NCBI GenBank assembly: GCA_902778375.1
Contig: CACYXJ010000002.1
Coordinates: 14,231-78,230, forward strand
From: an uncultured Erysipelotrichaceae bacterium
GTDB taxonomy: Bacteria > Bacillota_I > Bacilli_A > Erysipelotrichales > Erysipelotrichaceae
Reading direction: 5' to 3'
DNA: 64,000 nucleotides
In this document: positions 30,098-46,330 of the stretch, piece after piece
Layout: each line of letters starts with the position of its first letter
How positions within the stretch are numbered: position 1 is the first letter of the stretch
Made by a program: the position numbers and the translations under genes
Notes under the pieces: model-generated
What the model saw: the letters and a program-made list of their open reading frames with translations, nothing else
The model's database searches: none
What the model was told of the DNA's origin: nothing

Positions 30098-32134
30098 ATG
30101 CTGCAAATCAGAGATAAAAAAGAAGATGTATACAGAAAGCACAAAACAGCATTCGCATGGCGTATTTTGTACTTCAGTGTCTGTTTCTTTTTTTTGTTTA
30201 CCGTTGAAGCAAACGCTTATATTGATCCGTCTGTCATGACCTATGCCATCCAGGCGATTGCCGGCATTGCGATTGCACTGGGTACATTTTTCAATATCTA
30301 CTGGCGCAGACTCTGGAAAAGAATAGGCTGGAACGGATTGTTTTCAACTAAATATGAAAAAACAGAATCCGATGAACTGTACTTTGATGACCCGGTGTCC
30401 CGGCAGCGAATCCAGCCGGAATACAAACCAGGAAATGACGTACAGGTTCAGAAGGAAAAAGAGCCGTTCCTTCGGAAACTGTGGAACGAGTACAAGTATG
30501 CGCTGATTCTTGCGGCGTGCGGAAGCTTCCTCATCATGATCTTCAGCCCGCTTGATCTGTATTTCAATAATATGAAGGACTTCTGGTTTGATTTTGGAAT
30601 TGTCTTCCCGATTCTGTTCAAATCATTTATAAAATGTTTCCTGACATTATCAGCGCTTTTCCTGGTATGCCTACTGCTGTTTGATGAACTGTATCATGTG
30701 GTCTATATCGGCGCTTTTGCGGCTTTTGTCTGCGCGTATATACAAGGAAACTTTCTGGCCGGAAAACTGCCGTCACTGGATGGTTCGGCGATCGACTGGT
30801 CACTTTATCACATACAGATGCTTCAGTCCAGATATCTGTGGAGCCTTTTGCCACTGGCTGTTTTATTGATTGCCCGGTTTGTCAGAATGAAGGGCTTTTA
30901 TAAGATTACAAAGTACGTGAATCTTCTGATTACGGCAATGCTTGCTGTATCCCTCCTGACAGTCGGAATCAGGAACAAAGGATTTTCGGACAAGAACTAC
31001 CGCATTGCCACATCCGATCATCTATTCGAAATGTCAGAGAAGCAGAATTTCATTATTCTGATGGTCGACGCTCTGGATGCCCGGATTTTTGGGCAGATCA
31101 TGCAGGAAAACCCTGAATACGCGGAATACTTTGAAGACTTTACATTTTTCCCGGATACTGTCGGAGCCTATACTTTTACGAGTTATGCGATGCCGCAGGT
31201 TCTGACAGGAGAATGGATGGAAAACCAGACGGATTACCAGACCTATTTTTCCGAGGCGATGGACAATTCTCCGTTGTTTGCGGATCTGAAGGAGAAGGAT
31301 TACCGGATGGGTATGTATGAAACAAACCTGTATTATGACAGCGATAATATCTATCAGTTTGAAAACATCCATGACGCAGAAGTCGACTTTAAATCAAGAG
31401 ATGAATTCATGGAGACAGAAAAAGAACTGTTTATATTCAAATACGCACCGTATCAGCTGAAAAGAGATCATGTTCCGGATATGCTCACTTTTTACCGCAC
31501 TCAGCAGATCAACGGTGATATGGACATATTCTCGGACAACAACGAGAACTTTTATAATAAGATTCACTCCGAGCCGATTGTCATGACGCAGGACAAATGT
31601 TTCAAATTCATCCATATCGAAGGTGCTCATGTGCCGTTCCGCTATAACAAGGATGTGGAGCGGATCGATACAGAAGACGGTTCTTATGAACAGAACGTAC
31701 TATGCAGCATCACGATCATGAATGCGTATCTGAGCGCTCTGAAAGAAGCAGGTGCTTATGACAATACGGCAATTATCATAATGGGAGACCATGGATTCAA
31801 TTATGACAATGATGAATACTGGGGTCGCTGGAATCCCGCACTTCTGGTCAAAGGCATTGACGAGCATCATGAGTATACTGAATCACTGGCACCGCTTTCC
31901 TTTGATGATCTGCAGGAAGCATACAGAAGACTGGAAGAAGGACAGCCAGCAGAGGCGTGTTTCGATGCTGAAGAAGGCGATATGAGAGAACGCCGGTATA
32001 TGCATTTTATCCGGGAAGCAAAAATCACCGAATACATACAGACCGGTTATGCGGCGGATGAAGAAACACTTGTTCCCACAGGAAGGGTTTTTGAAAGAGC
32101 CGTCGATTATCTGGCAGAATTCCATATCAACTGA
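30098..32134 (+). CDS. LtaS/EptA-like membrane alkaline-phosphatase-superfamily transferase, paralogue 1 (YIDPS module)
   Basis: Signal-like N-terminus, YIDPS-TM, ~5 TMs, then 'VDALD', 'FTSYAMPQVLTG', 'HIEGAHVPF', 'MGDHG'. Confidence 0.75.
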   Translation: MLQIRDKKEDVYRKHKTAFAWRILYFSVCFFFLFTVEANAYIDPSVMTYAIQAIAGIAIALGTFFNIYWRRLWKRIGWNGLFSTKYEKTESDELYFDDPVSRQRIQPEYKPGNDVQVQKEKEPFLRKLWNEYKYALILAACGSFLIMIFSPLDLYFNNMKDFWFDFGIVFPILFKSFIKCFLTLSALFLVCLLLFDELYHVVYIGAFAAFVCAYIQGNFLAGKLPSLDGSAIDWSLYHIQMLQSRYLWSLLPLAVLLIARFVRMKGFYKITKYVNLLITAMLAVSLLTVGIRNKGFSDKNYRIATSDHLFEMSEKQNFIILMVDALDARIFGQIMQENPEYAEYFEDFTFFPDTVGAYTFTSYAMPQVLTGEWMENQTDYQTYFSEAMDNSPLFADLKEKDYRMGMYETNLYYDSDNIYQFENIHDAEVDFKSRDEFMETEKELFIFKYAPYQLKRDHVPDMLTFYRTQQINGDMDIFSDNNENFYNKIHSEPIVMTQDKCFKFIHIEGAHVPFRYNKDVERIDTEDGSYEQNVLCSITIMNAYLSALKEAGAYDNTAIIIMGDHGFNYDNDEYWGRWNPALLVKGIDEHHEYTESLAPLSFDDLQEAYRRLEEGQPAEACFDAEEGDMRERRYMHFIREAKITEYIQTGYAADEETLVPTGRVFERAVDYLAEFHIN

Positions 32135-32194
32135 TATCCGGCAATATGGTCCGATAACCGGTTATCAAGATCGGAAGCAGAAAGGAGAACGCCG

Positions 32195-33091
32195 ATGAGC
32201 CTGACAAGGAAACAGTTTGATGTTCTGGAAGTATTGGCCACATCAGAAGAGACTCTGACGCAAAGAGAACTTGAGGCTGACACCGGACACAGTCTGGGAA
32301 CGGTAAACCGTATTCTCAAAGAATTGAATGAACTTGGTTATGCCGGAAACGGAAAGATCACCAATGCCGGCATGACAGCTTTGGAACCATATCGTGCGAA
32401 AAGAGCGGTTTTTATTGCGGCCGGATTTGGTTCCCGCCTTGTTCCGATTACTTTCAATACTCCCAAACCTCTGATTCGTGTTCAGGGTGTTCGCATTATT
32501 GACCGTCTGATTGATGCATGTCTGGAAGTTGATATTGATGATATTTACATTGTCCGCGGACATCTCGGAGAACAGTTCGACCAGCTTCTCTATAAATATC
32601 CGATGATCAAGTTTCTGGAAAATCCTATGTATAACGAGACAAACAATATCTCCAGTTCCTTGGTCGCGCGGTATCTGCTTTCCAACGCATATGTGTTCGA
32701 AGCAGATCTTCTGATATCCAATCCAAAGATTATCAGGAAGTATCATTACACTTCCGACTTCCTGGCAATCAAAAAGGAACGCAGCGACGACTGGTGCCTT
32801 CGGGTCAGAAACGGTGTGATCGTTGAAGAAATGGTCGGCGGAGAAGGCGACGATATCTGGCAGATGGTCGGTATATCTTACTGGAATGAAGCAGACGGCA
32901 ATATGCTTGCCCAGGATATCCAGGAGGTATATGCATCTCCCGGCGGAAAGGAACGTTATTGGGAACAGGTGCCGCTGGTATACAGAAAAGAGCGGTATGC
33001 TGTCAGGGTTCAGGAATGCTTTGAATCAGATGTCGTGGAAATCGACACCTTTACCGAACTGAAGGCAATTGATAAAACATACGACGTGTAA
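32195..33091 (+). CDS. Winged-helix + LicC-type cytidylyltransferase
   Basis: wHTH 'LTQRELEADTGHSLGTVNRILKEL'; NTase 'AAGFGSRL.P.T...PKPL', 'NNISS', 'EADL', 'DDW', 'GISYW', 'YWE', 'EIDT'. Confidence 0.85.
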   Translation: MSLTRKQFDVLEVLATSEETLTQRELEADTGHSLGTVNRILKELNELGYAGNGKITNAGMTALEPYRAKRAVFIAAGFGSRLVPITFNTPKPLIRVQGVRIIDRLIDACLEVDIDDIYIVRGHLGEQFDQLLYKYPMIKFLENPMYNETNNISSSLVARYLLSNAYVFEADLLISNPKIIRKYHYTSDFLAIKKERSDDWCLRVRNGVIVEEMVGGEGDDIWQMVGISYWNEADGNMLAQDIQEVYASPGGKERYWEQVPLVYRKERYAVRVQECFESDVVEIDTFTELKAIDKTYDV

Positions 33092-33176
33092 ACCTGGCAA
33101 TTTGTGACAGTTGACATCAGATCAAGGAACGATTGTTCAAAATTTCAAATATTTCTTCTAAAATGGAACATATATA

Positions 33177-33250
33177 TTGACGTTTATAGTTTGCGTTATT
33201 AAAATTATGTTCAGTTCTTGTTAAAAACACAGTTCAACGTGAACTGTGTT
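33177..33250 (+). promoter_or_regulatory. Sigma-A promoter of the ABC operon and downstream 11-3-11 palindrome
   Basis: TTGACG (33177-82), 17 bp, TAAAAT (33200-05); AACACAGTTCA-acg-TGAACTGTGTT (33226-50). Confidence 0.7.
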
Positions 33251-33340
33251 ATGTGTTTCTGAAAAGGATATGTATCAAAACGTGTTCAAAACAGGCGGTA
33301 AGCACAGGCAAGAAGGAAAAAAAGCAGGAGAATTAACGTT

Positions 33341-34384
33341 ATGAAAAAGAAAAACATGAGCATGGCTGCGTTTCTGTGCAGTGCGGCACTTGTACTGACA
33401 GGCTGCGGTTCTTCCAACAGTGCGTCCGGTACTGAACCGGCTTCCAGCGGCGGAAAAGACCGCGTAGTCATCTATACAGCTGCTGAAGATGAGCGGATTG
33501 AATATATTCAGCAGGAACTTGATAAGCAGTTCCCGGATACTGAAATCGTGATTCAGTCGCTTGGAACAGGCCAGCTTTTATCGAAACTGCAGGCAGAAGG
33601 TACAAACAGCGACTGTGATATCTTCTATGATCTGGAAGTTGTGAATGCGGAAATCATTCTGAACGCATCTCCGGATCTGTTCGCGGATCTTTCCGAATAT
33701 GACTTCTCTATTTACGATGCGTCTGTTACCGGCTATACTGATCGTCATCACCAGTATGCAGTCAACGGCAAGACAGCTGGTGCGTTCCTGGTCAATACCA
33801 AGGTTCTGGAAGAGAAAGGTCTTCCGGTTCCGGAAACATATGAAGACATGCTGAAGCCCGAATATGCCGGTCTGATCTCAATGCCGAGTCCCAAGTCTTC
33901 CGGAACGGGTTACAGCTACTACAACGGAATGGTTACTGTTCTTGGTGAAGAAGCAGGTATGAAGTACTTCGATGACCTGAACCCGAACATCAAGGAATAT
34001 ACAACTTCCGGTTCTGCTCCGGCAAAGGCAGCTGTCCGCGGTGACGTCGCAATTGCTTACGGTCTGCTCTGGCAGTGTGTCAACTATGCCAACGAGAATG
34101 AAGGGCTGAAAGTCATCATTCCTGAAAACGGGCTTGCCTTCGATCTGTTTACCATGGGCATGATTTCCGGTCATGAAACAAAAGGCAGCGTCAAGGAAGT
34201 GTTCACTTATCTGTATAACGAACTGAACAAGCCGCAGTGTGCGAAGTTCAATCCGGATAAGATCTACGTAGATATGCCGGCTGCTGAAATTGCAAACTAC
34301 CCGGAAAGCTATGCAGAGATTACCATGAACGGTCTGTTCGATTTCAACTATAAACAGAATCTGCTGGATCAGTGGAAATACTGA
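33341..34384 (+). CDS. ABC substrate-binding lipoprotein, Fe3+/sugar-phosphate/2-aminoethylphosphonate class
   Basis: Lipobox 'LTGC'; 'VIYTAAE', 'GLPVPETYEDMLKPEY.GLISMPSPKSSGTG', 'YTTSGSAP'. Confidence 0.82.
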   Translation: MKKKNMSMAAFLCSAALVLTGCGSSNSASGTEPASSGGKDRVVIYTAAEDERIEYIQQELDKQFPDTEIVIQSLGTGQLLSKLQAEGTNSDCDIFYDLEVVNAEIILNASPDLFADLSEYDFSIYDASVTGYTDRHHQYAVNGKTAGAFLVNTKVLEEKGLPVPETYEDMLKPEYAGLISMPSPKSSGTGYSYYNGMVTVLGEEAGMKYFDDLNPNIKEYTTSGSAPAKAAVRGDVAIAYGLLWQCVNYANENEGLKVIIPENGLAFDLFTMGMISGHETKGSVKEVFTYLYNELNKPQCAKFNPDKIYVDMPAAEIANYPESYAEITMNGLFDFNYKQNLLDQWKY

Positions 34385-34403
34385 TTTCTTAAGAAAGGCT
34401 CAG

Positions 34404-34431
34404 GAATAGCAGGGATGCCTGCTATTCTTTT
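34404..34431 (+). terminator. Hairpin/partial terminator between SBP and ATPase genes
   Basis: GAATAGCAGG-gatg-CCTGCTATTC followed by T run. Confidence 0.6.
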
Positions 34432-34470
34432 CTTAATTATGTCTTTATGAAATACCAGGAGGAAACAACA

Positions 34471-35229
34471 ATGGCAGAACCTATTATTCAGGCAGTCAAT
34501 ATAAGTAAAAAATTCAAGTCCAAAACGGTCCTGGAAGATATTTCCTTTGATATCATGCGGGGAGAATTCCTGTCCCTGCTGGGACCTTCAGGATGCGGCA
34601 AAACAACGATTCTGCGCATGCTGATCGGTATTGAACAGCCTACGGCTGGCAAGATATTGAAAGACGGCGTGGATATCACAAATGCTGCACCGAAAGACAG
34701 AAACATCGGTATCGTTTTCCAGAATTATTCTTTGTTCCCGAATATGGACGTTTACCATAATATTTCCTATGCACTCAGCGCAAAGAAAATGGGAAAGGAA
34801 GAGATTGACAAAAAGGTCAAGGAAATCATCGAAACTGTCGGACTTGAAGAACATATCTATAAAAAACCAAAACAGCTTTCCGGCGGCCAGCAGCAGAGAG
34901 TGGCTATCGCCAGAACGCTGGTTCTGAATCCGGACGTGATTCTGTTTGACGAGCCGATGTCAGCTCTTGATGCGGAAATCAAAGTCATTCTGCGTCAGCA
35001 GCTGAAAGAGATTCAGAAGAAGCTGAAAATAACGATGGTGTATGTCACTCATGACCAGGAAGAAGCGTTTGCGCTTTCCGACCGCATCATGGTACTGAAC
35101 GACATGCGGATCATACAGATGGATACACCGTATAACCTTTATCACAACCCGACCGATCCGTTCGTAAAGCGGTTTGTCGTCGATCATCTTGATTTGAAAG
35201 TCAAATCGATAGAGGACAGCATCAAATGA
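34471..35229 (+). CDS. ABC ATP-binding protein (PotA/FbpC class, no TOBE tail)
   Basis: 'GPSGCGKT', 'LSGGQQQR', 'LFDEP', 'VTHD'; GGAGG before ATG 34471. Confidence 0.9.
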   Translation: MAEPIIQAVNISKKFKSKTVLEDISFDIMRGEFLSLLGPSGCGKTTILRMLIGIEQPTAGKILKDGVDITNAAPKDRNIGIVFQNYSLFPNMDVYHNISYALSAKKMGKEEIDKKVKEIIETVGLEEHIYKKPKQLSGGQQQRVAIARTLVLNPDVILFDEPMSALDAEIKVILRQQLKEIQKKLKITMVYVTHDQEEAFALSDRIMVLNDMRIIQMDTPYNLYHNPTDPFVKRFVVDHLDLKVKSIEDSIK

Positions 35230-37796
35230 ACACGCAGATCAATCGTGCCGGCAGAATCATCAAGCATGAATACCTGAGGCTCATATCAATAGGATGTATT
35301 CTGCTGTTTGCCATTCTGCCGCTGCTGACACTGGCATTTCATGTGACCGGGGAGGACTGGAGTTATATTCTGCAGGATGCAACATTCTGGGCAGCTGTCA
35401 AAAATTCCCTGATCTATACGACTGCAGCAGCCGTGACCACCACGGTGCTTGCCCTGGTTGCGGCATATCTGCTGAATACATCAAGTCTGAAGAGGAAAAA
35501 CCTGTTTGTCATTCTTCTGACACTTGGCATGCTTGTACCGACGATTTCCGTCGGTCTTGGTCTGAGAGTGCTTTTCGGTACAAACGGGTTTATCGATCTG
35601 CTTTTCGGGGCGGAGATCGAAGTCAGAGGCTTCTCAGGGCTGATCATGGGTTCAGTAATGACCTCGTTCCCGGCAACGTTTTTGATTCTCTATGATGCCC
35701 TGAACTATGAAGACAAGGGACCTTATGATGCAGCAAGCATCATGGGCATCGGCCGGCTGAGCACTTTCTTCCGAATGACCGTTCCCTATCTCAAGATTGC
35801 CTTGATTTCAGCTTTCTTTGCCTGTTTTACGCTGATCTTTTCCGACTATGGAATGCCGATGGAAATTGCCGGTAAGGTAAGCACCTTACCGATGTATCTT
35901 TACGATCAGTTCATGAGTAGCTTTCAGTATGGAAGAGGTTCGATTGCCGGCTTTGTTCTGCTGGTGCCTTCCATTGTTTCCTTTGTATTCGATTTGATCT
36001 TCAAGGATCAGAGTGAAAGCGAAAAGCAGAAAAAACTGATCGAAGCGGAAAAGAGTTTCAATATCGGCACAGCCGTGGTCATTACGCTGCTGTGCCTGGT
36101 TCTTTTCCTGCCGCAGCTGGCATTTATCAGCCTGTCTCTGACAAGGGCATTCCCGAACGATCTGTCGTTCACCTTTGAACACATTGCAAATATCTTCTCG
36201 AACACACACGGAGTGGGCCTGACGGCGTATATCTGGAATTCCCTGTCGCTGTCACTGCTTACGGCACTGTTCGGTACCGCATTTGCCTATCTGCTCGGTT
36301 ATCTGAGTGTCAGAAAAAGCGGCAGAATGGCAAAGGTCGTCAACCTGCTGGCATTGAGTACGATTGCTATTCCCGGTCTGGTACTGGGTATCGGTTTTAT
36401 CTTCCTGTTCAAGGGGACAAACGGCTATTTCTATGGGACCGTTCTGATCCTGGTTGTCGTGAATATCTTCCATTTCCTCGGATCACCGTATCTTCTGGCA
36501 AAGAACTGTCTCAGCAAGATCAACAGTGATTATGAGATTATCGGTGAGACACTGGGGATTTCCAAGGGACAGATCATCAGAAATGTTCTGATTCCCAATT
36601 CAGTGTCCACTCTGGTTGAAATGTTCTCGTATTTCTTCCTCAACAGCATGATTACGATCTCGGCTGTTGCCTTCCTGTGCAGTTATGACAACCAGCCGCT
36701 GTCCATCCTCATCACAACATATGAGAAAAACAGCAACTACGAGATGCAGAGCGTTATTTCTCTGATCATTCTGTTCCTCAACGTTGTAGCCCGGACCGGA
36801 TTTACGGCAATTGCAAACACATTACGTAACGCTGAAGCTAAAGAAGTTGACGGCGGCATCGGTCTTGAACGCCATGAATTTGATTTCCTGACATATCTGG
36901 AGAAACAGGGCAGAGGGCAGTACAGTCTTAGAAAAATGGCTGATGATCTGACAATTTCCCTGAATAACGTACAGAAATATCTGAAAGAGCTGAACGACAG
37001 GAACTATATCAATATTTTTGCGGACGGCAGTATTGAAATCAGCGAAAAAGGACTTAAGGCGCTTGAACCGTACAGAGTCCGCAAGGCAATCATCCTGGCA
37101 GCCGGCTTCGGTTCCAGACTGGCTCCGGTCACGCTGGATACACCTAAGTCGCTGGTCAAGGTCAACGGAGAAAGAATCATCGATACATTACTTGATGCTC
37201 TGGTTGCCAAGGGTATTACCAACATCACAATTGTCAGAGGCTACAAAAAGGAACAGTTTGATGCCTTGCTGGAGAAGTATTCTACGATCCGGTTCATTGA
37301 CAATCCGGAATACAACATCACCAACAATATTTCTTCCGCTGTCTGTGCAGCTGACCTGATTGACCGTTGCTATATCTGCGAAGCTGATCTGTATATCACC
37401 AATCCGGATGTCATAAACAAATATGAATATCAGTCCAATTATCTCGGGGCAAAGGTATCCGAAACGGATGACTGGTGCTTCAAAAAGATTAACGGTGCGG
37501 TTGCGGATTATCAGATGGGCGGTACAGACTGCTATCAGGCATTCGGTATCTCATACTGGAACAGTGAGGATGCGGAAAAACTGAAAGCAGACCTCCGCAA
37601 GGTATACGCCAGCAGAGGCGGCAAGGAAAACCTCTGGGAAATCGTACCGCTGAGAATCATGAAAAAGAAGTATCATCTGGAAGTCCGCAAATGTCATAAG
37701 AGCGACATTATCGAAATCGACAACTTTATCGAACTGATAGCGGCAGACAGTTCATATGCCCATTATCCGGGATATGAAGGTTTCCGGGTAGAATGA
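35226..37796 (+). CDS. Fusion: double ABC permease + winged helix + LicC-type cytidylyltransferase
   Basis: Two EAA-like loops ('DAASIMG', 'IIGETLG'); then 'YSLRKMADDLTISLNNVQKYLKEL'; then 'AIILAAGFGSRL', 'NNISS', 'EADL', 'DDW', 'GISYW', 'EIDN'. Single uninterrupted ORF. Confidence 0.85.
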   Translation: MNTQINRAGRIIKHEYLRLISIGCILLFAILPLLTLAFHVTGEDWSYILQDATFWAAVKNSLIYTTAAAVTTTVLALVAAYLLNTSSLKRKNLFVILLTLGMLVPTISVGLGLRVLFGTNGFIDLLFGAEIEVRGFSGLIMGSVMTSFPATFLILYDALNYEDKGPYDAASIMGIGRLSTFFRMTVPYLKIALISAFFACFTLIFSDYGMPMEIAGKVSTLPMYLYDQFMSSFQYGRGSIAGFVLLVPSIVSFVFDLIFKDQSESEKQKKLIEAEKSFNIGTAVVITLLCLVLFLPQLAFISLSLTRAFPNDLSFTFEHIANIFSNTHGVGLTAYIWNSLSLSLLTALFGTAFAYLLGYLSVRKSGRMAKVVNLLALSTIAIPGLVLGIGFIFLFKGTNGYFYGTVLILVVVNIFHFLGSPYLLAKNCLSKINSDYEIIGETLGISKGQIIRNVLIPNSVSTLVEMFSYFFLNSMITISAVAFLCSYDNQPLSILITTYEKNSNYEMQSVISLIILFLNVVARTGFTAIANTLRNAEAKEVDGGIGLERHEFDFLTYLEKQGRGQYSLRKMADDLTISLNNVQKYLKELNDRNYINIFADGSIEISEKGLKALEPYRVRKAIILAAGFGSRLAPVTLDTPKSLVKVNGERIIDTLLDALVAKGITNITIVRGYKKEQFDALLEKYSTIRFIDNPEYNITNNISSAVCAADLIDRCYICEADLYITNPDVINKYEYQSNYLGAKVSETDDWCFKKINGAVADYQMGGTDCYQAFGISYWNSEDAEKLKADLRKVYASRGGKENLWEIVPLRIMKKKYHLEVRKCHKSDIIEIDNFIELIAADSSYAHYPGYEGFRVE

Positions 37797-38674: not shown

Positions 38675-40150
38675 ATGAGTACAAACAAAAATGACAAACA
38701 GCCGGGTCTGCAGAGACAGCTGAGTCCGATGCATGTATGGGCAATCGCCTTTGGATGCATTATTGGCTGGGGCTCCTTTGTAAACCCGGGCAAAAAGTTT
38801 CTTCCTAATTCCGGTGTAGCCGGAACTGCAATTGCCATGGTGCTTGGTGCACTGGTCATGATGGTCATTGCCTGCAGTTATGCCTACATGGTTCCGAAAT
38901 ATCCGAAAGCCGGCGGCGAGTTTACCTTTACCAAGGCCTGCTTCGGCAAACGGGCGGCATATGTCTGCGGCTGGTTCCTGGTTGCGGCATATCTGACCAA
39001 TGTTCCGATGAATTCCACCGCAATCGGACTGATCGTGGACGGTCTGGACGGAGCTGCGGATATTCTGAAATTCGGATTTCATTATACGATTGCCGGCTTT
39101 GACGTCTATATGGGAGAGATGCTGTTCGCAATGTCGATTCTGGTGTTGTTTGGCTGGCTGAATATTGTCGGTGTCAAAAAGGCCGGCTTTGTTCAGACCG
39201 TATTGGCTGCATTGCTGGCATTATCAGTCGGCACGCTGACCATCGCAGCAATTATCAGTTCCAAGACTAGTACTGCCAACATGGCTCCGCTCTGGGGTTT
39301 TGACAAAGCATCCGCGATTGCGGCATACAAAGCCGGAACCTATACCGGAGTGGATGAATTTGCCAATACCAATATCATGTCGGCGATTCTGGCAACCTTT
39401 GCCATTGCACCATGGGCATATGTCGGCTTCGACACGATTCCCCAGGCAGCGGAAGAGTTCAAATTTTCCTATAAAAAAGTCAGCATGATCATGGTTGTTG
39501 CCATTGTCTTCGGCTGCTTTGTCTATACGGCAAACAATACGATTACTGCAGCTGCCCTGGAGAACTGGCCGGATCTGATCGTTGAATCGTCTTCCACTCC
39601 GTGGCTGCTTCTGGCTGCGGCGGAAAGACTTCTGGGGACACCGGGCAAAATTCTTGTTGGCGTTGCTGTGTCGTGTGCAGTTCTGTCGGGTATTATGGGA
39701 TTCTATCTTGCGTCAAGCCGTCTGATGTATTCCATGAGCAGAGACGGATATCTTCCTGATTTCTTCGGAAAGATCGATGAAAAACACGGAACCCCGAAAA
39801 ATGCGATGCTGTTCTGTATCGCTGTATCCCTGACCGGACCGGTTCTCGGCCGTGAGGCACTGGGCTGGTTTGTGGATATGTCCGCGATCGGAGCATCGAT
39901 CGGCTTCATGTTCACCTGCATGTCGACAATCGTTACCATGAAGCGCAATCAGGACAGGAGTCCGTTCCTGAAATGGATGGCTGTCCTTGGTGCGACATTC
40001 TCACTGGCGTTTATTGTTCTGCAGCTGGTTCCGATTCCGGGACTGGAAGGGGTACATTTCGGCGGGGAATCCTATGTACTTCTGGTCGTCTGGATCGTAT
40101 TGGGAATTATGTTTTATATCTATCAGGTTGATGAAATCAACGCATCATAA
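38675..40150 (+). CDS. APC-family amino acid/amine permease
   Basis: 'AFGCIIGWG', 'PKAGGEF', 'WAYVGFD', 'ASSRLMYSM', ~12 TMs. Confidence 0.85.
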   Translation: MSTNKNDKQPGLQRQLSPMHVWAIAFGCIIGWGSFVNPGKKFLPNSGVAGTAIAMVLGALVMMVIACSYAYMVPKYPKAGGEFTFTKACFGKRAAYVCGWFLVAAYLTNVPMNSTAIGLIVDGLDGAADILKFGFHYTIAGFDVYMGEMLFAMSILVLFGWLNIVGVKKAGFVQTVLAALLALSVGTLTIAAIISSKTSTANMAPLWGFDKASAIAAYKAGTYTGVDEFANTNIMSAILATFAIAPWAYVGFDTIPQAAEEFKFSYKKVSMIMVVAIVFGCFVYTANNTITAAALENWPDLIVESSSTPWLLLAAAERLLGTPGKILVGVAVSCAVLSGIMGFYLASSRLMYSMSRDGYLPDFFGKIDEKHGTPKNAMLFCIAVSLTGPVLGREALGWFVDMSAIGASIGFMFTCMSTIVTMKRNQDRSPFLKWMAVLGATFSLAFIVLQLVPIPGLEGVHFGGESYVLLVVWIVLGIMFYIYQVDEINAS

Positions 40151-40260: not shown

Positions 40261-42375
40261 ATGGGCTTTTTGGGACAGATACTGGGACCGTTCATGAGTT
40301 TTTGTTACAATCTGACAAAAAACTACGGCCTGGCAATTATATTATTCACTCTGATCAGTAAGTTTATTCTGCTTCCGATTTCGGTGTGGGTGCAGAAAAA
40401 CTCGATTACCATGGTGAAGATCGAGCCGGAAGTCAACCGGATCAAGATCAAGCATTTTGGTGACAAGGATACAATTGCTGAAGAACAGCAGAAACTTTAT
40501 AAAAAGGAACATTATAATCCGCTGGCATCCCTCGTACCGCTGATCGCCCAGATTGTTTTGCTGATGGGTGTTGTCGAGGTTATTTATCATCCTCTGGATT
40601 ATGTCCTGCGGGTACCGCAGCCGGTTGCTCAGGACATGATGAAAGTGACTCTGGAGAATGTGGATTTCCTGGATGAAGAATCCAGTTCGATTCAGATCTA
40701 TACAGTAGAGGATATTCAGGCGGGAAATGAAGCCGATTATCTGCAACTGCAGGAAAAATACCCGGATACGGATCTGCAGCCTGTCATCGATTCCTGTAAG
40801 AACTTCAATATGAAATTCCTGGGAATCGATCTGGGATGGATCGCATCTGAGGTCGGCGGTATTGCCCTGATTGCTCCGCTGCTGGCGGGTCTTTCCTCCC
40901 TGCTGCTGGCAATTGCCCAGAACAAAATCAATCCGTTGCAGGCAGAGCAGTCCAACGCCAATAAATACGGCATGCTGGCATTTTCTGTTGCGCTGTCGTT
41001 ATATCTTGGCATGTTTGTTCCGGCCGGTGTCGCACTTTACTGGGTTGCCAGCAACCTGATGGCGATCATCCAGCAGTGGCTGATGAACAAAGCCATTAAT
41101 CCGGAGAAATATGTTGACTATGAAGCTTTGGAGTCGACACGCGAAGAACTGAAATCGCTGTCCGGCGGAGACAAGAAACTGAAATTCAACGATCCGCTGG
41201 CGAAACGTGCGAAAGCAGACTATAAACGTTTCTTCTCGATCGAAAACAAGCACCTTGTTTTCTATTCAGAAAGCAACGGTTTCTATAAATACTTCAAGGG
41301 TATGATCGAATATATCCTGAAGTATACGAATATTCCTGTTCATTACATCACCAGTGATCCGAACGACCAGATCTTTGAACTGGCAAAAGAGAATGATCAG
41401 ATCAAGCCGTACTTCATCGATCCAATCACACTGATCACATTGATGATGAAGATGGATGCAGATGTTGTCGTCATGACAATGCCTGACCTTGAAACGTATC
41501 AGATCAAACGTTCCTATGTCCGCAAGGATATTGAATATATCAATATTTCCCATGGAATGGGATCCCTGAATATGACTTTCCGTAAGGGTGCCCTGGATCA
41601 TTTCGACACAGTATACGCATCCGGAAAGCATCAGAAGGAAGAACTGGAGAAACAGGAAGAATTCTATCATCTCCCGAAGAAGAATATTTTCGAAGGCGGC
41701 TATCCGCTGCTCGATGACATGCGGGCCAGTTATGCTGCTTCAGAAAAGCCGGTTCATGAGAAAAAACAGATTCTGATTGCTCCGTCATGGCAAAAGGACA
41801 ATATCGTTGACAGCTGTCTGGACGAAATTCTCGAGCAGTTGAAAGGACATGGCTATCAGATCACGGTCCGTCCGCATCCGCAGCATGTACGCCATATGCC
41901 GGAAAAGATGGAAGCGCTCAAGCAGAAGTTTGCCAACGATCATGATATTGAGATCCAGACCGACTTCTCCAAAACCAGCAATGTCTTTGAGGCCGATCTG
42001 ATGATTACCGACTGGTCGGATATTTCCCACGAATTTGCCTATACGACATACAAACCGGTTCTCTTTATCGATACTCCGATGAAGGTCATGAATCCGGAAT
42101 ATCAGAATATCGATACAGTTCCGATCAACATCTGGGTAAGAGATGAAATCGGTATGGTTGTCGGACTGGATAAACTGGACGAAATACCTGAAAAGGTTGA
42201 ATACATGCTGTCGCATACAGAAGAGTATCATGAGCGCATTGATAAACTTGCGCACGAATATGTATATCACCTTGACGAAAGTGTGCCTTATGATGCCCGC
42301 TATATTATCGAGGCGGTATTCAGAAAAGTAGAAGAAAGAAACGGTGTAAAAGCAGAAAATGTACAGACTGCTTAA
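40261..42375 (+). CDS. Fusion: YidC/Oxa1 insertase + TagF-like (CDP-glycerol glycerophosphotransferase-type) domain
   Basis: YidC 'NYGLAIILFTLISKFILLP', 'EEQQKLYKKEHYNPL', 'GVALYWVASN'; TagF-like 'SHG', 'GYP.LD', 'APSW', 'RPHP', 'DLMITDWSDI'. Confidence 0.82.
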   Translation: MGFLGQILGPFMSFCYNLTKNYGLAIILFTLISKFILLPISVWVQKNSITMVKIEPEVNRIKIKHFGDKDTIAEEQQKLYKKEHYNPLASLVPLIAQIVLLMGVVEVIYHPLDYVLRVPQPVAQDMMKVTLENVDFLDEESSSIQIYTVEDIQAGNEADYLQLQEKYPDTDLQPVIDSCKNFNMKFLGIDLGWIASEVGGIALIAPLLAGLSSLLLAIAQNKINPLQAEQSNANKYGMLAFSVALSLYLGMFVPAGVALYWVASNLMAIIQQWLMNKAINPEKYVDYEALESTREELKSLSGGDKKLKFNDPLAKRAKADYKRFFSIENKHLVFYSESNGFYKYFKGMIEYILKYTNIPVHYITSDPNDQIFELAKENDQIKPYFIDPITLITLMMKMDADVVVMTMPDLETYQIKRSYVRKDIEYINISHGMGSLNMTFRKGALDHFDTVYASGKHQKEELEKQEEFYHLPKKNIFEGGYPLLDDMRASYAASEKPVHEKKQILIAPSWQKDNIVDSCLDEILEQLKGHGYQITVRPHPQHVRHMPEKMEALKQKFANDHDIEIQTDFSKTSNVFEADLMITDWSDISHEFAYTTYKPVLFIDTPMKVMNPEYQNIDTVPINIWVRDEIGMVVGLDKLDEIPEKVEYMLSHTEEYHERIDKLAHEYVYHLDESVPYDARYIIEAVFRKVEERNGVKAENVQTA

Positions 42376-44341
42376 AACGACATTCAAATATCTGTATTTC
42401 TCAGCAGCATTCCTGCTTCTTTTCACCGTTCCTGTTCAGGCTTATATCGATCCTTCGGTCATGACATATGCCATCCAGGCACTTGCCGGTATCGCGATCG
42501 CTCTGGGTACATTCTTCGGTCTTTACTGGCGTAAGATCCGTAAGCCGGTACTGAAATTCTTTAACCTGGATGAAACCGTCGGACGTGAAGAAGAATCGGA
42601 TGAACTTGTCTTTTTCGATCCCTCTGTGATGAAGGAAGAAAAACGGATCATTCTGCCGAAGACTGCCGAAGGAAAGACTTCCGAGGACAGAAAGAAAGGA
42701 AAACTGCGGGAAATTGCAGAAGATATGATACCGGCGCTGTTTATTACGCTGTCCGGTTGCTTCATGGTGTGTATCTATGCACCGCTGGATCTATTCTTCA
42801 ACAATAAGAATGAATTCTGGTTCAATGCCGGCATTCTGGTGCCGCAGCTGATCCGTATGTTCTGTATGTTTGTGCCGGCTGTGCTGCTGATATACCTGCT
42901 TTGCCGGCTGATCAGCAAAAAGGTTTATTCCGGCGCTCTGTTTATTTCCACAGCTGCATTTATCTGCTCGTACATACAGGGCAATTTCCGCATCAGGAAT
43001 CTGCCGCCGATGGACGGTTCGTCTGTTGACTGGACGATTTATGACACAGAAAATGCCATTACGGCAATAATATGGGTCATTGTGATTACTGCTCTTCTGT
43101 ATGTTTACAAGTATGTCAGGGATAAAGGATTTAAAGCTGTTGTCGAAGTGGTAAGCTGTCTGCTGCTTGTAATTCTTTCCGTTTCTCTCTTTACTTCCTA
43201 TCTGGGCTCCCGGAATATTGTGGAGAAGAGCGTGTTCGTTTCTACCAAGGACCATGAGTTTGAGGTATCCGATACAGAGAATTTCTTTATTCTGGTGGTG
43301 GATGCCGTGGATGCCGACCGATATGCTGATGTATTCAACAGTCATCCTGAATATCAGGAATGGTTCGAAGATTTCACATTCTTCCAGAATGTCACCAGTA
43401 TCTATCCGTTTACATCCAGAGCCATTCCGCAGATTCTGACCGGAGAAGTCTATGAAAACGAAATGGACTTCACGGAGTTTGTCACCCAGGCTATGGACAG
43501 GTGTCAGTTCTTTCAGACACTGGAAAATGACGGTTACCGGATGGGAATATATGAATGCGAACTGCCATATAACGGCGACAAGCTTCACCGGTTTGAAAAT
43601 ATGAAAACCGACGATGTCGATCTGAATCCGGCTGCGAAAAACACCTTCATCAAAGAACAGTTCAAACTGACACTGTTCAAGTACCTGCCGTACTACTTCA
43701 AGAAATTCATTCACTGCAACACAAACAGTTTTTCCAGCATGATCTGGCCGGAACCGTTCCTGATGGTCAACCGTGATTTCTATGAAGATCTGCTGGAAGA
43801 CAATGTCGGGCATACAGGCGATAAGGTTTTCCGTTATTACCATGTGGAAGGCGGACATGTACCGTTTGTCTATGACAAGGATGTAAATTCGATTCCTGAG
43901 GAAGAAGGTACATACCGTCAGAACGTGGAAGCCAGCATGACGATTGCCGGTGCTTTTGTAAACAAGCTGAGAGAGGCTGGGGTTTATGATAACGCGACCA
44001 TTATTATCATGGCCGACCATGGATACAGCGATGATGTCGGCGGAATTATGGACCGTTTCAATCCGCTCCTGATGATCAAGAGTTTCGGAGAGAAACATCC
44101 GTATGCAGTATCCCAGGCGCCGCTTTCCTATGTGGATCTTCCGGAAGCGTATAACCGGCTGCTGGAGCATAAAACTGCTGAAGAATGCTTTGATGCCCGG
44201 GAAGGCGACGCAAGAGTCAGAAGACTGCTGTGGCTTGAATGGCTGAAAGAAGAATACATGGTTGAATACTATCAGGACGGTTATGCATCGGATTATCAGA
44301 ATATCAAACCGACCGGTAAAGAATTCAGATTGGAGCAGTGA
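42359..44341 (+). CDS. LtaS/EptA-like membrane transferase, paralogue 2 (YIDPS module)
   Basis: 'VQA|YIDPSVMTYAIQ', 'VDAVD', 'FTSRAIPQILTG', 'HVEGGHVPF', 'MADHG'; overlaps the yidC fusion by 17 bp. Confidence 0.75.
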   Translation: MYRLLKTTFKYLYFSAAFLLLFTVPVQAYIDPSVMTYAIQALAGIAIALGTFFGLYWRKIRKPVLKFFNLDETVGREEESDELVFFDPSVMKEEKRIILPKTAEGKTSEDRKKGKLREIAEDMIPALFITLSGCFMVCIYAPLDLFFNNKNEFWFNAGILVPQLIRMFCMFVPAVLLIYLLCRLISKKVYSGALFISTAAFICSYIQGNFRIRNLPPMDGSSVDWTIYDTENAITAIIWVIVITALLYVYKYVRDKGFKAVVEVVSCLLLVILSVSLFTSYLGSRNIVEKSVFVSTKDHEFEVSDTENFFILVVDAVDADRYADVFNSHPEYQEWFEDFTFFQNVTSIYPFTSRAIPQILTGEVYENEMDFTEFVTQAMDRCQFFQTLENDGYRMGIYECELPYNGDKLHRFENMKTDDVDLNPAAKNTFIKEQFKLTLFKYLPYYFKKFIHCNTNSFSSMIWPEPFLMVNRDFYEDLLEDNVGHTGDKVFRYYHVEGGHVPFVYDKDVNSIPEEEGTYRQNVEASMTIAGAFVNKLREAGVYDNATIIIMADHGYSDDVGGIMDRFNPLLMIKSFGEKHPYAVSQAPLSYVDLPEAYNRLLEHKTAEECFDAREGDARVRRLLWLEWLKEEYMVEYYQDGYASDYQNIKPTGKEFRLEQ

Positions 44342-44350
44342 AGAAATAAC

Positions 44351-46330
44351 ATGAGAAAAATGCTGAAAAGCGGAATACGGTATGTTTATTTTTCAACAGC
44401 CTTTCTGTTTCTTTTCACAATCCAGGCAAATGCATATATTGATCCTTCTGTCATGACCTATGCAATTCAGGCGCTTGCCGGTATTGCGATTGCATTAGGC
44501 ACATTCTTCGGACTGTACTGGCGAAAGATCCGGAAACCGATTCTTCACTTCTTTAATCTGGATGAAACCGCCGGAAGAGAAACAGAATCGGATGAACTGT
44601 ATTTTTATGATGCTTCCTGTATGAAGGAAGAAAGGCGTATCACACTGTCTTTGGACAGTCCGGATAAAAAGTCTGTAAAGGATAAAGGAAAGTTCGGACA
44701 GATTCTTTCCGACCTTGTACCGGCACTGTTCATTACTCTTTCCGGATGCTTTATGCTGTGTATCTGTGCGCCGCTGGATCTGTATTTCAACAATAAGAAT
44801 GAATTCTGGTTCAATACAGACATTCTTGTTCCGCAGCTGATCCGCATGATGTGCATGATTGCACCGGTTGTGCTTCTGGTGTATCTGCTGATCCGGCTCA
44901 TCAACAAAAAAGCATATTATATTTCTCTTGTCGTTTCTGTGATTGCCTTTGTATGTTCCTATATTCAGGGAAATTTCCGCATCAAAAATCTGCCTCCGAT
45001 GGACGGCTCTTCTGCCGACTGGTCACGCTATACAGGCGAGAACATCATAACGCTGCTGATATGGATTGCTGTCGGAACAATAGTGGTATGGATTTACCGG
45101 AAGGTAAAGGACAAAGGTTTTGCGTCCGTTGCGGAAGTGGTCAGTGTGCTGATGGCGGTTATTCTTTCCATTACACTTGTAACAACTGCCATTGGATCCA
45201 GAAATGTTATCAAGAAAGCATTGTATGTAGCAACAAAGGACGGTGAATTCAAAGCCTCAAAGCAGGATAATCTGTTTATTCTGGTTCTGGATGCGCTGGA
45301 TGCGTATACCTATGATGAAGTGGCACTTGCTCATCCGGAGTATAAAGAATGGTTTGCGAATTTTACGTATTATCCGAATACGACCAGCGTGTTTCCGTTT
45401 ACGACCCGCTCCATACCGCAGATGTTGACGGGAAAGATTTTCGAAAACGAAACGGACTTTACAGAATACAGCACGGATGCACTGGACAATGCGGAATTCC
45501 TGCGGCATCTTGAAGAACGCAATTATCAGATCGGTATTTATGAAACCGAATTATCCTATAACGGAGATAAACTGTCCCGTTTTGAAAACATCCGGACAGA
45601 TGATGTTGAACTGAACATGGCTGCGAAGAACACCTTTATCAAGGAACAGTTCAAGCTTGTTCTCTTCAAATATCTCCCGTACTGTTTCAAGCAGTATGTT
45701 GACTGCAATACCAACAGTTTTATCAGTATGATCTGGCCGCCGCCGTTCCGTACGGACAACTGGGATTTTTACAATGATATCCATACAGCGGAAACCGAAT
45801 ATATCGACCAGAACAATTTCCGGTTTATTCACGTGGAAGGAGCACATGTGCCTTTCAGATATGACAAGGATATGAACTGGATTTCTGAAGACGAGGGATC
45901 ATATTACAAAAATATCGAAGCGAGCATGACGCTTGCCAATGCATATATTCAGAAACTGAAAGATGCCGGAGTGTATGATAATTCCGCAATCATTATCATG
46001 GCTGACCACGGCTCCAGAATTCTTGATGAAGAGGAAGATGAATTATACAAATTCAATCCGATCTTCATGGTCAAGGGAATCGGAGAAAATCATGAGTACC
46101 GTGTCGATCAGGCACCGCTCTCCTATGAAGATCTGATCGAATGCTATGAAAGGCTGATGGATCATAAGCCCGCATCAGAATGTTTTGACTGGAAAGAGGG
46201 AGATCACCGTGTCAGACGGCTGATCTGGTCGGCATGGCTGCAGGAAGACCACATGATCGAATATACATTGGACGGACATGCTTCAGAATTTGAAAAAATG
46301 GAACCGACAGGAAGAGAATTCAACCGATAA
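44351..46330 (+). CDS. LtaS/EptA-like membrane transferase, paralogue 3 (YIDPS module)
   Basis: 'ANA|YIDPSVMTYAIQ', 'LDALD', 'FTTRSIPQMLTG', 'HVEGAHVPF', 'MADHG'. Confidence 0.75.
   Translation: MRKMLKSGIRYVYFSTAFLFLFTIQANAYIDPSVMTYAIQALAGIAIALGTFFGLYWRKIRKPILHFFNLDETAGRETESDELYFYDASCMKEERRITLSLDSPDKKSVKDKGKFGQILSDLVPALFITLSGCFMLCICAPLDLYFNNKNEFWFNTDILVPQLIRMMCMIAPVVLLVYLLIRLINKKAYYISLVVSVIAFVCSYIQGNFRIKNLPPMDGSSADWSRYTGENIITLLIWIAVGTIVVWIYRKVKDKGFASVAEVVSVLMAVILSITLVTTAIGSRNVIKKALYVATKDGEFKASKQDNLFILVLDALDAYTYDEVALAHPEYKEWFANFTYYPNTTSVFPFTTRSIPQMLTGKIFENETDFTEYSTDALDNAEFLRHLEERNYQIGIYETELSYNGDKLSRFENIRTDDVELNMAAKNTFIKEQFKLVLFKYLPYCFKQYVDCNTNSFISMIWPPPFRTDNWDFYNDIHTAETEYIDQNNFRFIHVEGAHVPFRYDKDMNWISEDEGSYYKNIEASMTLANAYIQKLKDAGVYDNSAIIIMADHGSRILDEEEDELYKFNPIFMVKGIGENHEYRVDQAPLSYEDLIECYERLMDHKPASECFDWKEGDHRVRRLIWSAWLQEDHMIEYTLDGHASEFEKMEPTGREFNR

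Follow-up and report, generated by a model that had tools for sequence, protein, structure and literature searches.

YIDP, a conserved small membrane protein module genetically linked to a YidC–TagF fusion gene

Several described systems share features with the locus analyzed here, in which a small membrane protein segment, the YIDP module, occurs with a YidC–TagF fusion gene and LtaS-like enzymes. M13 procoat and Pf3 coat are, like the module, small proteins in which a leader with an AxA sequence (the leader missing in Pf3) precedes a short acidic stretch that is translocated, a single transmembrane helix, and a basic C-side, and the module sequence follows the same order with YIDPS, the helix, and RKxKKK. 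Both coats are YidC-only substrates, and genetic linkage connects the module to a YidC domain that has kept a positive groove residue. They have no sequence relationship to the module, however: the coats are structural proteins of phages that engage YidC transiently, whereas the module is cellular, invariant in sequence, equipped with a conserved cytoplasmic tail, and co-inherited with one YidC fusion. DltX (~45 aa, with a C-terminal Tyr motif, in the dltABCD operon) is likewise a small single-pass protein of a teichoic-acid modification operon, with a conserved motif whose invariant Tyr lies near the outer face. The DltX motif is C-terminal, its partner is the MBOAT protein DltB, and it carries an acyl ester, whereas the module has an N-terminal motif and YidC–TagF as its partner, and any adduct would be a phosphodiester; the module has no Pfam DltX match at E ≤ 10, and its neighbors are YidC–TagF, LicC-like, and LtaS-like genes.

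MifM and YidD are also small proteins that adjoin a yidC gene, but both are encoded upstream of it; MifM is an arrest peptide with little conservation, and YidD (PF01809) is amphipathic and contains Cys. The module lies downstream of, or is fused after, the yidC fusion gene and matches neither in Pfam or NCBIfam. The module-bearing enzymes resemble the LtaS/GacH/EptA-type phosphotransferases and PbgA/YejM in having five transmembrane helices and an outside alkaline-phosphatase-superfamily domain, and they have an invariant Thr and a putative D..DH metal set, but they bear very little sequence similarity to members of known structure (no PDB match below E 0.05). We know of no LtaS/GacH/EptA/PbgA enzyme with this N-terminal module or with linkage to a YidC fusion. 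A logic like that considered below is found in GtrA/GtrB/GtrC, where a membrane carrier is loaded by a transferase in the cytoplasm and crosses with the aid of a small membrane component, and an outside enzyme performs the transfer to the polymer, but all parts differ, the counterparts here being a TagF-like phosphotransferase, a YidC domain with the YIDP protein, and an LtaS-like enzyme.

A conserved segment in three LtaS-like paralogs

The window, the whole 64,000-nucleotide stretch analyzed, comes from an uncultured Erysipelotrichaceae bacterium and contains the following features.

30098..32134, + strand: paralog A, 678 aa (ORF; Pfam PF00884, E 4e-9; alignment), laid out as leader, module, linker, five transmembrane helices, and outside alkaline-phosphatase/sulfatase-fold domain
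30098..30217, + strand: signal-peptide-like leader of paralog A, ending EANA
30218..30295, + strand: module core, copy A, YIDPSVMTYAIQAIAGIAIALGTFFN
30365..30385, + strand: tail motif ESDELYF, copy A (alignment), with E90, S91, D92, E93, L94, and F96 invariant
32195..40150, + strand: head-group supply genes between paralog A and YidC–TagF, among them genes for an HTH–LicC-like nucleotidyltransferase and for an ABC solute-binding protein and ATPase; further ones encode an ABC permease–LicC-like domain fusion, a third LicC-like protein, and an APC-family permease
40261..42375, + strand: YidC–TagF-like CDP-alcohol phosphotransferase fusion, 704 aa; YidC part with five transmembrane helices and invariant K34
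42359..44341, + strand: paralog B, 660 aa, filling the slot of the free-standing small gene of other genomes
42359..42442, + strand: leader of paralog B, ending PVQA
42443..42520, + strand: module core, copy B, YIDPSVMTYAIQALAGIAIALGTFFG
42593..42613, + strand: tail motif ESDELVF, copy B, within residues 77–86 (EEESDELVFF)
44351..46330, + strand: paralog C, 659 aa
44351..44434, + strand: leader of paralog C, ending QANA
44435..44512, + strand: module core, copy C, YIDPSVMTYAIQALAGIAIALGTFFG
44585..44605, + strand: tail motif ESDELYF, copy C

Paralogs A, B, and C are LtaS-like proteins of the sulfatase fold, and all begin with a leader ending in AxA, followed by YIDPSVMTYAIQAxAGIAIALGTFF, WRK, and, further on, ESDEL.F. 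The first-pass annotation had described these elements, and its AxA leader endings (EANA, PVQA, QANA), the basic stop after the module (YWRRLWKR and YWRKIRK in the translations), and the linker (TESDELYF, EESDELVF, and TESDELYF) were all recovered; its claim of 26 residues identical except for one I/L exchange holds for a 25-residue core, whereas residue 26 also differs (N vs G). Paralog A is 43% identical to B and 41% to C in a MAFFT alignment, and in a codon comparison outside the N-terminal region A shares 38–40% identity with B or C, and B shares 59% with C. The window holds no free-standing copy of the module.

Beyond the module come five hydrophobic transmembrane helices, bundled in the N-terminal part of the enzyme, and then the outside catalytic domain, which matches PF00884 at 28.5–36.6 bits (cut-off 25), an architecture of the LtaS/EptA type. 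The best full-length fold matches of the enzyme were PbgA/YejM. Residues D315, T352, H495, H500, D553, and H554 are invariant in 59 LtaS-like family sequences, and they are candidates for the LtaS catalytic positions (Thr nucleophile, metal ligands Asp/Glu, Asp-His).

Conservation of the segment is far above chance: its best 25-column window has 24 columns identical across the three proteins, compared to 15 in the best window elsewhere and a maximum of 19 in 20,000 column shuffles. A plain membrane anchor copied recently by duplication or gene conversion would be in line with the nucleotide identity among the three copies, which is 84–88% in the segment and 53–66% elsewhere. Identical residues are nonetheless encoded by different codons in 29–44% of cases inside the segment and 43–47% in the gene remainder, and since synonymous sites have diverged as much within the segment as outside it, gene conversion and recent copying are excluded, as the original suggestion of purifying selection on the peptide had held. 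The same peptide is moreover retained in hundreds of species of two phyla and in conserved fused homologs, leaving the copying explanation with negligible probability.

The YIDP module as a protein family

The segment forms the transmembrane core of a small, conserved membrane protein, here named the YIDP module. It consists of an optional type I leader ending in AxA, the sequence Y-[IVL]-D-P-S-V-M-T-Y-x-I-Q-A-x-A-G, a small-residue-rich helix, R-K-x-K-K, and, as its acidic tail, E-x-E-S-D-[ED]-[IL]-x-[FVI]. We found no Pfam or NCBIfam model and no paper for the family, and both the YIDP protein and the YidC–TagF fusion gene are undescribed so far. A profile search (E ≤ 1e-3) yielded 728 clusters at 50% identity, with the module occurring as a free-standing protein of 60–100 aa, which is its commonest form, or as an N-terminal fusion to LtaS-like or sulfatase-type enzymes; there are also two independent triple fusions of YidC+TagF+module+Sulfatase (P0208 and P0299). 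The N-terminal 96 aa used as a query matched only short proteins, in leader and leaderless forms, so that the standalone YIDP-type proteins envisaged in the annotation do exist.

The module is retained by over 100 fused homologs, some with as little as 33% overall identity, and unfused orthologs of the enzymes (548–577 aa) start exactly at the end of the module and linker. In the Solobacterium/Erysipelotrichaceae lineage of the window, the small gene first became fused with the LtaS-like transferase gene downstream of it and was later duplicated. The motif is kept in homologues across hundreds of species and two phyla, and the module, which had alternatively been read as a targeting tag, is more than a tag on these transferases, being a protein in its own right with wide conservation. 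Since it exists without an enzyme attached, it must do something as a subunit.

Among 181 module representatives with mutual identity below 80%, positions V6 (.94), T8 (.94), Y9 (.93), Q12 (.97), A15 (.93), G16 (.97), and R30 (.92) are conserved. Values for Y1 (.99), D3 (1.0), P4 (.99), and S5 (.98) are high as well, but the sequences were selected by a pattern that biases positions 1–5, so only positions from 6 onward are unbiased. From position 6 to 16 every helix face is fixed except the more variable 10 and 14, as expected for a helix buried in protein. The cytoplasmic tail of the free forms is conserved as strongly as the helix, and Y9 and Q12 are absent from divergent members. Conservation of Y1, D3, P4, and S5 goes beyond the usual needs of docking, which hints at chemistry or substrate contact.

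The leaders of all three window copies combine a basic n-region with a hydrophobic h-region and carry small residues at −3 and −1, and across the leader forms of the family position −1 is Ala in 49 of 49, with V, A, G, S, or I at −3. Of 41 leader-type loci, 11 have a Peptidase_S26 gene, against none of 35 leaderless ones (Fisher p = 6e-4, shared ancestry ignored), and in one locus (L005) the S26 gene lies directly 3′ of the small module gene. Leaderless forms start 2–16 residues upstream of the Tyr. These observations lend indirect support to the prediction of a cleavable type I signal peptide.

Linkage to the YidC–TagF gene

The fusion gene at 40261–42375 encodes a YidC/Oxa1 core with five transmembrane helices and a positive residue in the first core helix (K34, invariant across 79 YidC–TagF family members). 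It scores 115.6 bits for PF02096 (cut-off 35) and 110.9 for TIGR03592 (cut-off 84.3) and matches YidC entries of the PDB down to E 3e-13. The other part belongs to the TagF/TagB family of CDP-glycerol glycerophosphotransferases by its PF04464 profile (46.3 bits, cut-off 22.1) and its TagF-type GT-B fold; a PDB sequence search with this domain gave no match, and its best Foldseek PDB match was TagF 3l7k_D (E 6e-8). It has an invariant RPHPQ plus a TDWS motif.

Linkage between module and fusion gene, which the first-pass annotation had proposed to check, is tight. The module is present in 76 of 80 YidC–TagF loci of different species, nearly always as the next ORF downstream, and the 76 genomes span Bacillota and Ca. 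Saccharibacteria; two of the four misses have a contig end at or just after YidC–TagF, and a third has ~480 nt left downstream. Conversely, YidC–TagF ends ≤400 nt upstream of a free-standing module in 61 of 70 testable cases and lies within ~3.2 kb in 67. None of the 80 loci has both a free and a fused module. Module genes follow YidC–TagF in hundreds of gut and rumen bacteria, and the genes after the small module gene vary or are absent. In the window, paralog B begins inside the YidC–TagF gene, 17 nt ahead of its stop, and the stop codon overlaps the paralog B start. LtaS-like genes were found within 8 kb in only 57 of the 80 loci; therefore, tethering of an LtaS-like enzyme cannot be the module's only role.

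Proposed role of the module

We propose that the module is probably a cleaved N-out/C-in adaptor subunit that ties an outer LtaS-like transferase to YidC–TagF, based on gene order, gene fusions, and one indirect AlphaFold2 confidence signal, and that it is most likely fused to the three cell-wall-decorating enzymes for docking to the YidC–TagF protein. The leader–module hairpin would insert in the manner of M13 procoat, and leaderless forms in that of Pf3 coat, after which signal peptidase I would cut between AxA and Y. The mature module would then be N-out/C-in, with YIDPS and a polar stripe of S5, T8, Y9, and Q12 in the outer membrane half and the basic stretch and acidic tail on the cytoplasmic side. 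It would remain bound to YidC–TagF, with its helix on the YidC domain (D3 possibly paired with K34, the invariant lysine of the groove) and its acidic tail on the cytoplasmic part. Such binding would couple the LtaS-like transferase outside (putative Thr nucleophile and metal site) to its TagF-like partner in the cytoplasm, which may use CDP/CMP-activated head groups such as phosphocholine and aminoethylphosphonate, and paralogs A, B, and C would serve as interchangeable outer modules for one YidC–TagF core.

In an AlphaFold2 model of paralog B alone, pLDDT exceeded 90 for residues 115–660, whereas the module helix reached 63–73 and the tail was below 60 (47 and 59 in blocks 71–80 and 81–90); these low values indicate that the module is not packed confidently on its own enzyme. 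When YidC–TagF and residues 1–112 of paralog B were joined in one chain (shallow, unpaired alignment), block 77–86 rose to a mean pLDDT of 85, a weak hint from modeling that the acidic tail may dock on YidC–TagF; the module helix, at 39–55, was not confidently placed.

The earlier annotation had raised the idea of a tyrosine shuttle by analogy with DltX; in such a scheme the hydroxyl of Y1 (or S5/T8) would hold a phospho-head group as a phosphodiester for the outside LtaS-like domain. Tyrosine would be a good leaving group for a Thr nucleophile, the module's neighborhood includes a CDP-alcohol phosphotransferase as well as an outside phosphotransferase, and Y1, D3, P4, and S5 are near-invariant across phyla, albeit by a measure biased by sequence picking; the YidC–TagF and module pair is also constant whichever head-group pathway accompanies it, and is found even without an LtaS-like gene nearby. 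The TagF-like domain is cytoplasmic, however, and the motif would be on the outer face after insertion, with no evident recharge route, so each peptide would deliver one group. The mature N-terminus of leader forms would arise only outside the cell, and the invariant Tyr is internal in leaderless forms (MxxL/G-Y), which shows that a free N-terminal Tyr is not required. With Y9 and Q12 lost in divergent members and no similarity to DltX in Pfam, the shuttle is not supported, and we consider it improbable.

The procoat/Pf3-like anatomy (short acidic translocated stretch, one transmembrane helix, basic C-side) and the groove lysine kept by the adjoining YidC domain would also suit a hairpin that is only a handle for insertion of the enzyme by that domain, with no later role. 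This explanation is decidedly improbable given that cargo-less, free-standing modules are the commonest form and a signal without cargo is senseless, that unfused orthologs of the same enzymes manage without it, and that the tail of free forms is as conserved as the helix; to our knowledge, YidC substrates are not normally this conserved in sequence. The module's small size, predicted N-out topology, position beside a yidC paralog, and conserved acidic motif at the C-terminus also recall MifM, and the small ORF might be a nascent-chain sensor of YidC activity whose tail is an arrest sequence for downstream genes. We regard this as very improbable: the module gene lies downstream of the yidC gene, not upstream, the genes that follow are variable or absent, invariance extends to the helix and not to the tail alone, and the motif is kept in frame inside 650-aa enzymes. 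The helix-to-motif spacing of ~30 residues is also short for force sensing, judged by MifM and SecM.

An extension of the adaptor proposal, possible though unlikely, is that YidC–TagF, YIDP, and the LtaS-like enzyme form a three-part machine that decorates polymers with zwitterionic head groups, with YidC re-purposed as a flippase. Oxa1-family insertases, E. coli YidC included, scramble lipids in vitro (PMC11047089). The TagF-like domain would load a membrane carrier from a CDP/CMP-activated head group, the cytoplasm-facing hydrophilic groove of YidC would be extended over the outer leaflet by the module's invariant polar stripe of Y1, D3, S5, T8, Y9, and Q12, and the LtaS-like enzyme, held by the module, would pass the head group to the wall. 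If so, this would be an unrecognized machine that decorates envelope polymers of Gram-positive bacteria and Saccharibacteria with phosphocholine, phosphoethanolamine-like groups, or aminoethylphosphonate.

LicC, choline kinase, and PEP mutase genes, together with LtaS-like genes, are often found near module loci. One related locus has LicC together with choline kinase, and that of Roseburia inulinivorans has a cytidylyltransferase–PEP mutase fusion, a phosphonopyruvate-decarboxylase-like gene, and a PhnW-like gene.

A conserved module on three divergent enzymes

The three LtaS-like paralogs of the window, A, B and C, share a Sulfatase fold and carry at their N-termini the YIDP module, which comprises a leader ending in AxA, a helix beginning YIDPSVMTY, a basic stretch and an acidic ESDEL tail. 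The PF00884 matches were weak yet above threshold in all three.

30098–32134, paralog A, PF00884 Sulfatase domain in the C-terminal half
42359–44341, paralog B, PF00884 Sulfatase domain in the C-terminal half
44351–46330, paralog C, PF00884 Sulfatase domain in the C-terminal half

A first-pass annotation had described a near-invariant segment of 26 residues in these proteins. The three stretches translate exactly as it reported, as do the leader endings (EANA, PVQA and QANA), the YWR[RK] stop and the ESDEL[YV]F motif, and the near-invariance holds for a 25-residue core, residue 26 (N versus G) being a further difference. In a MAFFT alignment A was 43% identical to B and 41% to C, and a codon comparison gave identities outside the N-terminal region of 38–40% for A versus B or C and 59% for B versus C, while every pair matched at 24–25 of the 25 core residues. 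The best 25-column window of the alignment had 24 columns identical across the three proteins; the best elsewhere had 15, and 20,000 column shuffles reached a maximum of 19. The fraction of identical residues encoded by differing codons was 0.29–0.44 in the core and 0.43–0.47 outside it, indicating that the module copies are as old as the genes and that the peptide is under selection. This synonymous divergence rules out gene conversion or recent copying of the segment and bears out the earlier suggestion of purifying selection on the peptide.

A small protein family paired with YidC–TagF

With the first 96 residues of B as query, all matches were short (56–165 aa), and many were complete free-standing genes on long contigs. 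These genes occur in a leader form, with MKK, a hydrophobic stretch and AxA followed by YIDPSVMTYAIQAIAGIAIALGA..RKAKKKI..KLGIDENKNKEVESDEIV, and in a leaderless form that begins M-x(1-3)-[LAG]-YIDPSVMTY. A module profile searched against 1.84 billion representative proteins recovered 728 clusters (50% identity) at E ≤ 1e-3 and 418 at E ≤ 1e-10. Among the best 150 of the 728, about half were shorter than 200 aa, ~36 were proteins of 600–840 aa with the module N-terminal to a Sulfatase-type enzyme, and two, P0208 (1326 aa) and the high-GC P0299 (1361 aa), combined YidC, a TagF-like domain, the leader-AxA-module and Sulfatase in a single chain. The leader and AxA site are retained within both chains (residues 640–760 of P0208 and 650–760 of P0299), so that in these independent fusions signal peptidase would split one polypeptide into two partners. 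More than 100 full-length B homologs, down to 33% identity, retain Y[IVL]DPSVMTYAIQA.AG.AIALG after AxA, and unfused enzyme orthologs (548–577 aa) start just ahead of the first helix of the enzyme body.

Neither Pfam nor NCBIfam contains a model for the module; assignment to a known family was rejected, the matches in both being sub-threshold and to generic membrane families only. The exact-motif matches listed included none from Erysipelothrix. Divergent modules, lacking at least one of P4, S5, Y9 and Q12 (counted from the Tyr after AxA) and retaining Y1-x-D3 and the basic/acidic tail, were seen at loci L066–L070, L082, L087, L089 and L090; examples are YVDPATLTYVVQIIAG after AWA in Roseburia, and AYIDAATMSMVFAAVAG and YLDPSVITIAFSAIAG in Oscillospiraceae and Ruminococcus.

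Every free-standing module that we looked up adjoins a gene for a 677–709 aa YidC (PF02096) with a TagF-like (PF04464) C-terminal half, usually abutting its stop codon. This YidC–TagF fusion forms ~7,500 clusters at 90% identity and is annotated publicly only as 'membrane protein insertase YidC'. A scan of the YidC–TagF alignment against one genome per species found relatives in at least 490 species, the 80 best loci belonging to Erysipelotrichaceae/Solobacterium, Lachnospiraceae (including Roseburia inulinivorans DSM 16841), Oscillospiraceae, Ruminococcus, gut 'Bacilli' and Ca. Saccharibacteria. The module was present at 76 of these 80 loci, nearly always as the next same-strand ORF; of the remaining four, two lie on contigs that end at or just after YidC–TagF and a third has ~480 nt downstream. 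Free and fused modules occurred together in none of the 80. Among 70 testable free modules at loci found by the DNA motif alone, YidC–TagF ended ≤400 nt upstream in 61 and lay within ~3.2 kb upstream in 67. The window ORFs included neither a free-standing module nor a Peptidase_S26 gene, and B starts 17 nt before the stop codon of the window's YidC–TagF gene (40261–42375, + strand), the slot taken by the small gene elsewhere. Most simply, the small gene would first have been joined to the LtaS-like gene downstream, and duplication of the fused gene would have produced C and A.

Among the carriers are bacteria abundant in the human gut and the rumen (Lachnospira eligens, Roseburia inulinivorans, Solobacterium and Oscillospiraceae); the window itself comes from a bovine gut metagenome, and the named genomes closest to it are Erysipelotrichaceae bacterium NK3D112 and Solobacterium MAGs. 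YidC–TagF with a leaderless module, MNxxxxFG-YIDPSVMTYAIQAGAG..., was also seen in Ca. Saccharibacteria/Nanosyncoccus (L041, L046, L057, L060, L063–L065, L071, L078 and L080), which are episymbionts with very small genomes. That these episymbionts possess the pair points either to horizontal transfer between bacteria of the gut and rumen or to an essential part in the envelope. Contigs from rumen metatranscriptomes, at word depths of up to 15.5, matched window positions 42443–42480 and 44429–44482, but only over 38–54 nt of the motif core, with unlike sequence beyond; they are transcripts of other organisms' modules, which means that the motif is conserved even at the DNA level and expressed in vivo. 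Metatranscriptome coverage of the window locus itself was sparse.

Processing, topology and predicted structure

In leader-type modules the residue at −1 was Ala in 49 of 49 and that at −3 was V, A, G, S or I. Peptidase_S26 genes were present at 11 of 41 leader-type loci versus 0 of 35 leaderless ones (Fisher P = 6e-4, ignoring shared ancestry), at one locus (L005) directly after the small gene, and leaderless modules start 2–16 residues ahead of the Tyr. Taken together, the −1/−3 pattern, the S26 distribution and the leaderless starts argue that the mature module would begin at YIDPS, or just ahead of it, on the outer face. The tail would be kept in the cytoplasm by the basic residues after the helix, and in the predicted topology of the fused enzymes five more helices bring the catalytic domain to the outside, an arrangement shared with LtaS and PbgA. 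D315, T352, H495, H500, D553 and H554 are invariant in the LtaS-like enzyme family, a pattern which, from LtaS and EptA, we take to mark a phosphotransferase that depends on metal and uses a Thr nucleophile.

In a set of 181 module representatives with pairwise identities below 80%, Y1, D3, P4 and S5 were essentially invariant, these positions being partly fixed by the pattern used to collect the set; V6, T8, Y9, Q12, A15, G16 and R30, for which the measure is unbiased, were 92–97% conserved. Every face of helix residues 6–16 is fixed except at the more variable positions 10 and 14, which fits a helix that would be enclosed by protein rather than lipid. A polar stripe (S5, T8/Y9 and Q12) would lie in the outer half of the membrane and is followed by a small-residue face (A15/G16, A20, G22/A23 and G26). 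The YidC domain has the canonical five helices, with an invariant lysine, K34, where the groove arginine sits, and its long outside loop (residues 113–185) is unconserved.

AlphaFold2 modelled B alone with an enzyme body at pLDDT >90, a module helix at 63–73 and a linker below 60. We also modelled the window YidC–TagF joined to B residues 1–112, after the natural triple fusions, using an alignment of reduced YidC rows and two such fusions. The YidC–TagF part of this chain was well modelled (pLDDT 80–95; best PDB match in a fold search, TagF 3l7k), and the module helix was without confident docking (39–55). The sole module part to gain confidence was the EEESDELVFF block, in strand conformation with a mean pLDDT of 85, compared with 47 and 59 for blocks 71–80 and 81–90 of B alone; docking of the conserved acidic tail on the cytoplasmic part of YidC–TagF is thereby no more than hinted at. 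A PDB sequence search returned no useful match for the LtaS-like enzyme body or the TagF-like domain, and full-length TM-scores in the fold search of both were low (~0.3).

Proposed role and head-group supply

The family, its architectures, its linkage to YidC–TagF and its signal-peptide pattern are demonstrated here, and from there we infer how the module may be cleaved, bind and function. The best-supported explanation is that it is an obligate small subunit of YidC–TagF and an adaptor to outside LtaS-like transferases. It would be inserted in a procoat-like or Pf3 coat-like manner, trimmed by signal peptidase I in leader-type forms, and would couple the outside transferases to the cytoplasmic TagF-like enzyme, in this lineage through covalent fusion. 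The first-pass annotation had proposed that the Tyr could carry the head group in the manner of DltX, and this is possible, given that the invariance of Y1-x-D-P-S goes beyond usual docking needs, but such a carrier would be without a recharging route and the module has no homology to DltX. The many free-standing forms contradict a pure insertion tag, and the gene order and the helix invariance both contradict a MifM-like sensor. Compatible with published YidC scramblase activity (PMC11047089) is a more ambitious reading, in which the YidC groove might act with the polar stripe of the module as the flippase of a lipid-linked head-group intermediate; if true, the system would be a Gtr-like three-part decoration system.

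The enzyme domains are all of known superfamilies. Pfam, NCBIfam and the literature searched do not describe the small protein family, its obligate pairing with YidC–TagF or the machine that they imply, and neither the module nor the fusion was found in that literature. We know of no described envelope pathway that joins an insertase–teichoic-acid-type phosphotransferase fusion to a near-invariant partner of 60–100 aa, common though the combination is, and we rate the whole system, with the function that we infer for it, as new in kind. The YidC/Oxa1 fold would here have acquired a further, new use, and the small proteins that are essential to envelope machines would gain a new example. Host recognition of bacteria is shaped by surface decorations of the phosphocholine and phosphonate types, and the locus, a concrete and testable gene set, bears on how Gram-positive bacteria deliver such groups without LicD-type cytoplasmic transfer.

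Within 8 kb of YidC–TagF, LtaS-like genes were found at 57 of the 80 loci, LicC-like nucleotidyltransferases at ~42 and Peptidase_S26 at 11. The head-group pathway genes differ among loci: LicC with choline kinase and a nucleotidyltransferase–aminotransferase fusion are among them, and the locus of Roseburia inulinivorans has a PhnW-like gene, a cytidylyltransferase–PEP mutase fusion and a phosphonopyruvate-decarboxylase-like gene, a set that points to a 2-aminoethylphosphonate head group (for comparison, see PMC6697681). In the window, three LicC-like domains, an ABC importer and an APC-family permease lie between A and YidC–TagF, and the downstream part holds LicD, a Wzx-type flippase, rhamnose-synthesis genes and many GT2 genes.

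32195–33091, + strand, LicC-like nucleotidyltransferase with an N-terminal MarR/IclR-type winged helix-turn-helix (HTH)
35226–37796, + strand, ABC importer permease (two BPD_transp_1 units) with a C-terminal LicC-like nucleotidyltransferase, 856 aa
47338–49724, + strand, class-V aminotransferase (PhnW-like), then a fusion of cytidylyltransferase-like and GFO/IDH/MocA oxidoreductase domains
51275–52183, + strand, LicD-family phosphotransferase in the same glycopolymer region

Through the permease–LicC fusion, uptake of a head-group precursor would be physically linked to its activation with CTP, and the HTH–LicC-like protein could be an enzyme that doubles as a regulator of the locus; the joining region of the former resembles the N-terminus of the latter. 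The pair at 47338–49724 may be a further way of making an activated head group of the amino-alcohol or phosphonate type, and no PEP mutase was seen among the scanned window ORFs. Because LicD lies in the glycopolymer region, the source organism seems equipped for the classical LicD route in the cytoplasm as well as for the YidC–TagF/LtaS-like one. At a single locus elsewhere (L008, 1412–2830) a gene of the MBOAT family (PF03062), to which DltB belongs, lies ~4 kb upstream of YidC–TagF beside two Sulfatase-type genes. Just upstream of the glycopolymer region of the window is what looks like a phage-defence cassette:

18657–24180, + strand, TerB-N/TerB-C protein, BrxC/BrxD-like ATPase (PF10923, E = 2e-167) and DEAD/Helicase_C protein in succession
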